Source of the DNA: Saccostrea echinata
Taxonomy: Eukaryota
Assembly: GCF_033153115.1 (NCBI RefSeq)
Contig: NW_026889754.1
Location: forward strand, 4,960,001 to 5,024,000
Length of the DNA stretch: 64,000 nt
Direction of reading: 5' to 3'
Positions 19,137 through 19,825 of the stretch are shown here, one piece after another. The translations under genes and the position numbers were made by a program. Every line of letters begins with the position of its first letter. Positions within the stretch are counted from its first letter, which is position 1. Under the pieces are notes generated by a model that saw only the letters and a list, made by a program, of their open reading frames with translations, did no database searches and had not been told where the DNA came from.

Positions 19137-19234
19137 AAAAAAAACTGTATTTTAAATGTGTTGTTATTTTATGGGGAAAACTCCCAAAAATGAGGTGTTA
19201 TAAAGGGGGGGGGGGATAATATAACACTTCAGTC

Positions 19235-19777
19235 ATGGCTGGTGTTGATAAGGAGCCAGACTACCTTCCTGTTTACCCTAAATATGCTCTGCTCTTAAAG
19301 AGAGAAGCTACCTTTGATGATGAATGGCCCGAGTCTTTAAAAGGATTAATACCCGACCTAGCCAGAGCCGGATTTTATTACAGAGGAGTGAGTGATAAGA
19401 CCATCTGTTTTCATTGTGGTATGACTTTAAACTGCTAGGAACTTACAGACGATCCTTATGTAGAACATGCTTATTGGAACCCTAATTGTCCTTACATCAA
19501 TACCTATAAAGGACGTGAGTGGGTGATGAATGTATTCATTAACCATTTACTCCGGGTGGGATACAAACCTTCACCTGAAATTAAACCTCTACTAGACCAA
19601 ACCTCTACAGAGATTCAGGCAACAGGAAAATGTCACATTTGTTTAGACGGAGAATTACAAATGGCTTTACTCCCTTGCGGACACGCATGTTGCTGTTCAT
19701 TATGTGCTCCCACCTTCCGATATTGCCCCATCTGTCGAGCCGATGTGAAGAGAACCCAGCGTATATTTCTGTGTTGA
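19235..19777 (+). pseudogene. iap: Inhibitor-of-apoptosis protein (single BIR + C-terminal RING), 180 codons, one premature stop
   Basis: R..TF..WP...LARAGFYY.G..DKTICFHCGMTLNC*ELTDDPYVEHAYWNPNC matches the BIR CX2CX16HX6C pattern, with TAG at the conserved Trp. The in-frame RING is CHICLD...LLPCGHACCCSLCA....CPICR....RIF. Confidence 0.92.
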
Positions 19778-19825
19778 CTATGAATAAAAAGGATTGAAAC
19801 CCTATTTTTCTCTTCATTTATCATC

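Follow-up and report, generated by a model that had tools for sequence, protein, structure and literature searches.

An inhibitor-of-apoptosis (IAP) gene in a 64,000-nucleotide stretch of the Saccostrea echinata genome (contig NW_026889754.1, positions 4,960,001 to 5,024,000 of the forward strand; hereafter the window) is an old resident gene of a Polinton, not a retrocopy. As the preliminary description had proposed, the gene is Polinton-borne: it sits at the same place in sister copies of the element, between the genes for protein-primed DNA polymerase B (pPolB) and the packaging ATPase. We favour the reading that one lineage of oyster Polintons has long carried it as an accessory gene and that its compact BIR-RING product blocks or delays host cell death during replication; judged from sequence and selection, this reading seems reasonably probable.

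Architecture of the gene and its element

The gene comprises 180 codons plus a stop (19235..19777, + strand) and encodes a single BIR and a RING. The open reading frame and the Pfam matches agree with its earlier description as an intronless 180-codon BIR-RING gene with one TAG between pPolB and the ATPase. The in-frame TAG (19436-19438) is codon 68, lies inside the BIR and is read as X in the translation; the copy in the window is a dead remnant. The BIR domain (residues 23-88; 19301..19498, +) matched PF00653 (E 2.9e-19), is closest to BIR3-type domains and has the CCHC zinc ligands typical of the IAP family, all four invariant across the 51 other copies tallied. Pfam placed the RING at residues 131-173 (E 2.1e-11), and domain and structure matches revealed a cIAP-like C3HC4 RING that reaches the C-terminus (19625..19774, +) and carries the aromatic tail of the family. 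Such aromatic RING tails have a role in dimerisation.

The best solved-structure matches were BIR3-type domains, ranked ahead of BIR1-type domains, and cIAP1 aligned across both BIR and RING. Baculovirus and entomopoxvirus IAPs ranked top among the viral fold matches; BIR proteins of OsHV-1, which are absent from our BIR tree, came at fold ranks 19, 38 and 44 with 24-32% identity. In the AlphaFold model the BIR had a pLDDT of about 90 and the RING part was of low confidence. Codons 63-71 (19421..19447, +), the most variable nine-codon stretch among copies, are predicted to form a strand of the peptide (IBM) groove, a placement for which we assume BIR3 residue numbering. The acidic and aromatic groove residues were invariant in the 51 copies tallied, whereas the neighbouring strand is polymorphic.

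A TATA box and a TCAGT initiator, 30 bases apart (19199..19233, +), precede the gene. TATAAA begins at 19199 and TCAGT at 19229; the TATA box reported at 19198 is real but starts one base further right. Among the 92 fetched copies, TATA was retained in 92, TCAGT in 91 and a GGG-AAAA-CCC-type motif in 91, and because of this retention the signals are not due to chance. The same arrangement (TATA, 30 bases, TCA(G/T)T) was found ahead of further genes in the element, and the IAP promoter is therefore in the element's own style. The TATA box, initiator and AATAAA that had been assigned to the gene as its own were all found, but the AATAAA (19783..19788, +) also occurs in the spacer of sister elements that have no IAP.

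Upstream of the TATA box is a Rel/NF-kB-like motif (19174..19185, +). The kB-like string previously noticed there, GGGAAAACTCCC at 19174, represents a motif conserved in sister copies but bears a change private to the window; GGGAAAACCC, which presumably fits the Dorsal consensus, was contained in 77 of 92 copies. Related looser GGAAAAACC motifs occur at eight other places in the element, including before pPolB and small accessory ORFs. The strict form, a pattern derived from the site itself, was found at two places in the window element, where 0.1 would be expected. Its second copy (30562..30573, -) precedes a macrodomain-like gene in sister elements, a gene lost here at a break at about 30613. 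As judged from its retention among sister copies, the Rel-like motif is a conserved promoter element.

The element extends from a left terminus (AGTAGT at 14746), with a terminal inverted repeat (TIR; 14746..14869, +), to the break at about 30613; it is right-truncated and retains only its left end. Genes diagnostic of Polintons were found: pPolB (15116..19136, +; PF03175, E 1e-28; stops and frameshifts in this copy), a Pox_A32-like packaging ATPase (19826..20467, +; Pox_A32 matched on homologues; one internal stop here), a retroviral-like integrase with chromodomain (22703..23797, +; PF00665, E 8e-11), a double-jelly-roll (DJR) major capsid protein (28567..29991, +; atlas score 0.98, DJR-like family on 14-24% of members) and an adenain-like maturation protease (29985..30494, +; atlas score 0.97, Peptidase_C5 on 27-38% of members). 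The gene that we call minor capsid was named from its position only. Stops or frameshifts affect pPolB, the IAP, the ATPase and two further ORFs, and the window Polinton is a decaying fossil. Six sisters fetched whole showed 85-97% alignment to the window element. TIRs, AG ends and target-site duplications (TSDs) of 6 bp, the ends characteristic of Polintons, were present in sister copies, whose ends read AGTAGT: in five, the two inverted ends lie some 22 kb from each other, and exact 6-bp target duplications were found in four of the five.

Several other features of the region were recorded. The two copies of a 283-bp repeat at 10625-10907 and 31400-31680 mimic terminal repeats around the Polinton; this inverted pair was rejected as its TIR, being a common repeat with 1019 candidates. 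An open frame with a CCHC knuckle crosses the left end (14310-14855, -), and the insertion site of the Polinton was probably a gag-like gene belonging to some other mobile element. Between the integrase and the minor capsid gene, a small-ORF cluster (24122-26485, +) comprises a pair of cysteine-rich paralogues and a second pair of paralogues, and a GGTTTTTCC motif and a TATA box precede each of the four; a domain search with these small ORFs found no family. Near the right end of a sister element (L046:5513-6046, +) is a 178-aa ORF with two CCHC zinc knuckles, which is 45% identical in IAP-less elements. In the same sister, a 166-aa macrodomain-like ORF follows the protease (L046:679-1176, +). 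It was present in 6/6 whole IAP-bearing sisters and 0/2 IAP-less ones, and its matches were weak (DarG, E 7.5e-5; PDB macrodomains, E 0.01-0.4). The window retains only its promoter (30562-30613). Having the Rel-like motif in common with the IAP, it is possibly a second counter-defence gene.

Sister copies, IAP-less elements and relatives

The genome search for the IAP gave 152 matches from the 150 of 390 candidates that were scored. Merging of 127 listed rows at ≥64% identity gave at least 113 loci on 33 contigs; the ATPase lay directly downstream at 106 of these listed loci, and the other seven had no listed adjacent ATPase. pPolB was present at 91, the ATPase at 88, both neighbours at 87 and an exact 180-codon ORF at 73 of 92 fetched loci, which were the best-scoring by protein and lean to intact copies; the census figures are lower bounds. 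By hand count, about 113 of 150 scored BIR matches sit on Polinton loci, in a tally that scored 150 of 290 candidates and is biased to single-exon BIRs. A tandem array of host IAPs, about eight genes long, was observed on contigs C38 and C44 in mirror order with identical scores (L062, L162-L163), and is probably one region assembled twice.

At 41 of 147 listed ATPase loci there was no IAP upstream. Of these 41, 20 were fetched and searched for an IAP, with none found (0/20). The ATPase of this sister subfamily is 90-95% identical to that of IAP-bearing copies. At 19 of the 20 loci the pPolB end lies about 65-105 bases ahead of the ATPase, and the intervening spacer holds AATAAA and corresponds to the sequence that flanks the IAP cassette on either side. 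When two IAP-less elements were read whole, the IAP was found nowhere and the macrodomain-like gene was also absent. In IAP-less elements (L156-L161) the minor capsid gene is only 49% identical to its counterpart versus 80-94% for core genes, a divergence possibly due to module exchange. In the ATPase tree the IAP-less copies were nested among relatives that probably bear the IAP, four of the labels being weakly supported. This nesting makes loss more likely than recent gain, and the gene is probably absent from the sister subfamily through loss. Since that subfamily persists without the gene, the IAP is dispensable.

Compact BIR-RING proteins of 158-181 residues align end to end with the window IAP, with 60-65% identity in S. 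cucullata and 38-42% in Ostrea edulis and environmental records. Gene context in other species comes from fused gene models and four weak contig matches. Two models, P0415 from S. cucullata and P0403 from O. edulis, link the IAP with the ATPase, and environmental record P0435 links pPolB with the IAP; the neighbours are thus the same at an identity of only 36-65%. In three further S. cucullata models the BIR is fused to additional ORFs of the element, and in a contig of run X6 (organism C) the RING end is joined to the ATPase. Thirteen compact BIR-RING proteins formed one clade in a quick tree of 77 BIRs (SH-aLRT 92), apart from 15 BIRs of S. echinata host genes, and FastTree on 280 sequences recovered the same clade (support 0.94). 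The gene had been described as captured. That it ultimately derives from a captured cellular IAP is likely, but the quick BIR tree, in which 40 of 74 forks are open, named no donor lineage and placed no host gene as sister.

In a second, distant Polinton family the BIR gene lacks a RING, has a long leader and lies next to an integrase-like ORF at 11 of 12 loci (L084-L095); about 15 loci matched one such gene (L063:4963-5490, -) at ≥53% identity. These BIRs formed their own clade in the BIR tree, which suggests that the gene of the second family is probably a separate capture. A scan of IMG/VR confirmed 0 of 28 candidates. A second IMG/VR scan gave eight loci, and the three examined (L176-L178) are two-BIR-RING IAPs on large-virus contigs without Polinton genes, outside the Polinton IAP clade. 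A scan of JGI metagenomes gave 13 loci, none in the clade and two with a pPolB-like match; cellular IAPs with several BIRs dominated the results of a profile search over 1.84 billion proteins.

Selection, proposed role and alternatives

Counted from variants common to two or three copies, the IAP had a pN/pS of 0.86-0.89, compared with 0.13-0.20 in the ATPase and 0.13 at the end of pPolB (Fisher p about 1e-9). Within the IAP, constraint was strongest on the RING (0.23-0.37). Maximum-likelihood omega across 64 copies, which includes neutral decay after insertion, was 0.78 for the IAP, 0.32 for the ATPase and 0.26 for pPolB. In a two-copy comparison the IAP had the highest omega of 11 genes (0.88; others 0.11-0.37), and dN/dS of the capsid in one pair of copies was 0.16. 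Variable sites numbered 4 of 49 among family-conserved positions versus 40 of 131 elsewhere (p 0.0016). Among 92, only one disablement was common to two copies. Stop density per 1000 codons was 0.33 for the IAP versus 0.66-0.67 for core genes, a figure biased by copy choice. The IAP protein is constrained at the RING and at structural sites.

Variation peaked at codons 63-71 (p 0.0007 for that stretch and 0.052 for any stretch of this length; the stretch was fixed after the variation had been seen). Six recurring alleles of this stretch were carried by 30, 17, 10, 6, 5 and 4 of 84 copies, and these groove alleles have reassorted with N-terminal alleles. pN/pS in the groove was 1.3-1.4, not significantly above 1 (p 0.42-0.47). 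The pattern is no more than suggestive of diversifying selection on the groove and may also reflect relaxation.

In the role that we propose, host polymerase II would transcribe the IAP from the TATA/initiator promoter, most likely as an early gene of the element, and the Rel-like site would possibly switch it on. Free linear DNA ends and integration breaks would trigger cell death. The groove, being of BIR3 type, would take up the N-terminal IBM peptide carried by caspases or IAP antagonists of the host. The C-terminal RING, once dimerised, would serve as an E3 ligase or keep a host IAP stable, as is described for baculovirus IAP-3. Steps beyond sequence and selection are ones that we infer, and the proposal is made on that basis. 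According to the accessible text of PMC4966970, baculovirus IAP-3 proteins act by stabilising host IAPs, and a short leader, which the Polinton IAP also has, marks the baculovirus IAPs that do so; the same text states that not every viral IAP blocks apoptosis. The preliminary description had taken the gene to imply an infectious cycle. It is not proof of one: linear DNA that transposes in the germ line would likewise gain if cell death were blocked, and the close sister subfamily has reached about 41 listed loci with no IAP. The IAP alone proves no virions. Contigs guessed to be RNA cover the whole element and are uninformative on the level or strand of an IAP transcript.

That the RING is the part under strongest constraint also speaks for a functional IAP that tunes immune signalling (cIAP/DIAP2-like ubiquitin steps, NF-kB/antiviral) and does not block caspases, for example by dimerising with host IAPs and degrading or trapping them. 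The Rel-like motif ahead of the IAP, the macrodomain-like gene and the pPolB promoter region points the same way, and the variable groove strand may mean weak IBM binding. However, the acidic and aromatic residues beside that strand are invariant in the copies tallied and BIR3-type matches outrank BIR1-type ones; we regard a signalling role as unlikely, if well worth weighing. The whole-gene pN/pS (0.86-0.89) and omega (0.78) also fit relaxed selection, in which the IAP, once useful, now drifts with the element in S. echinata and has been lost in some lineages. Such relaxation would be in keeping with omega near 1 outside the RING, the top rank of the IAP in the two-copy comparison, the nesting of the IAP-less subfamily among IAP-bearing relatives and a groove pN/pS not significantly above 1. 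Nevertheless, shared variants avoid conserved sites and cluster in one stretch, disablements in common between copies are nearly absent, stop density is lower than in core genes (with the bias of copy choice) and the promoter is retained in 91-92 of 92 copies; we consider relaxation improbable.

Two further explanations place the gene on the host side. Polinton-amplified IAPs might have been co-opted as extra oyster stress or immune genes: databases call the copies host BIRC7-like genes, and some intronless clam IAPs are expressed according to the available part of PMC7831173. Yet the copies remain within elements that are decaying gene by gene, their variants track element subfamilies and not loci, and a listed adjacent ATPase is missing at only 7 of 113 loci, and we give co-option very little credence. 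A host IAP retrocopy dropped into a single element would be in line with an intronless gene followed by AATAAA. The preliminary description had named absence from sister copies and a flanking TSD or poly-A of the gene's own as signs of such an insertion; instead the position is constant among some hundred copies and between two genera, the gene has no TSD or poly-A of its own, and the AATAAA is present in elements without the gene. The nearest host IAP is just 46-48% identical over the BIR, and there is no close intron-bearing parent. The shared position in sister copies and the lack of an own TSD or poly-A refute a retrocopy origin, to which we assign next to no probability.

Bivalve IAP annotation and comparison with known systems

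A sister-copy protein is identical to an S. echinata record named BIRC7-B-like, and public models P0003, P0010, P0014, P0016, P0403 and P0415, named as host IAPs, splice a Polinton BIR to the ATPase or to other ORFs. These fusions are artefactual "novel architectures". IAP gene counts serve to explain stress and disease tolerance of bivalves, and databases name the Polinton copies as host genes; Polinton context provides a simple test for any bivalve IAP list. Polinton cargo may explain part of the bivalve IAP gene expansion. A broader view, which we put forward tentatively and hold to be doubtful, is that a large share of the intronless expansion is Polinton viral cargo, and that in this oyster the Polinton IAP and the death pathway of the host are engaged in an arms race in which recombination would cycle several groove alleles and a Rel-inducible promoter would be shared with the macrodomain gene. 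If this were true, a large share of the intronless bivalve IAPs, hitherto read as host retroposition and stress adaptation, would need rereading as viral cargo. The pair of subfamilies with and without the IAP, together with the groove alleles, offers a handle on whether animal Polintons meet a cell-death defence.

A link between bivalve IAP expansion and Polintons was not found in the literature outside subscription papers, and the available parts of PMC9679248 and PMC11131425 hold nothing on Polinton IAPs. What is added here is the scale, the constancy of the position and a connection with the "retroposed" IAPs of bivalves. The latter, as portrayed in the accessible portions of PMC7831173, PMC8917759 and PMC13159474, resemble the Polinton IAP in being intronless, dispersed and closely related copies. 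These portions (Song 2021, Witkop 2022 and MBE 2026, respectively) credit retroposition, and the word "Maverick" is absent from them. In the hard clam, 51 of 159 IAPs are intronless and DNA transposons are enriched nearby, as stated in the portion from Song 2021 (PMC7831173); Mavericks make up 1.7-1.9% of the hard clam genome by the figures in the excerpt of PMC8905726. Polintons abound in bivalve genomes, and annotations frequently present their ORFs as proteins of the host, according to the consulted text of a preprint (10.1101/2025.04.19.649669).

An IAP is not unexpected in a Polinton, since IAP homologues in adintoviruses were already published: the available text of Starrett et al. 2021 (PMC8502044) reports that adintoviruses carry IAP and Bcl2 homologues, with IAP labels beside Mytilus and Pinctada maps in the text of Suppl. 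Fig S2, and the available part of a 2026 preprint (10.64898/2026.07.28.741253) lists an IAP for leafhopper adintoviruses also. As in the oyster, the adintovirus IAP is an accessory gene of an animal Polinton; whereas that text gives it one sentence and map labels, the oyster case adds architecture, census, selection and presence/absence.

Baculovirus IAP-3 proteins (Op-IAP3, CpGV IAP) and single-BIR viral IAPs such as Melanoplus entomopoxvirus MSV248 resemble the Polinton IAP in fold and in being intronless and, probably in the Polinton case too, captured, with a short leader and a BIR plus terminal RING; MSV248 and the Neodiprion NPV IAP are also similar in size. However, baculovirus and entomopoxvirus IAPs have 25-32% identity to it, IAP-3 has two BIRs, and viral IAPs ride large lytic viruses whereas the oyster IAP rides an integrating 22-kb element. 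Human BIRC7/ML-IAP and the BIR3-RING part of cIAP1 share a single BIR3-type domain plus RING with the Polinton IAP, as described in the accessible portion of PMC13159474. The Polinton IAP differs from BIRC7 and cIAP1 in its linker of about 40 residues and lack of UBA and CARD. Because it grouped with no cellular IAP in the tree, the name "BIRC7-like", which databases derive from this architecture, applies by analogy.

Vertebrate Mavericks, in the available text of Barreat and Katzourakis 2021 (PMC8097293), share the (AGT)2 ends, the 6-bp TSD, and the pPolB-ATPase-PZ and integrase-capsid-protease modules, and no apoptosis gene is mentioned in that text. Their accessory genes, as described there, flank the core modules, whereas the oyster IAP interrupts the pPolB-ATPase junction.
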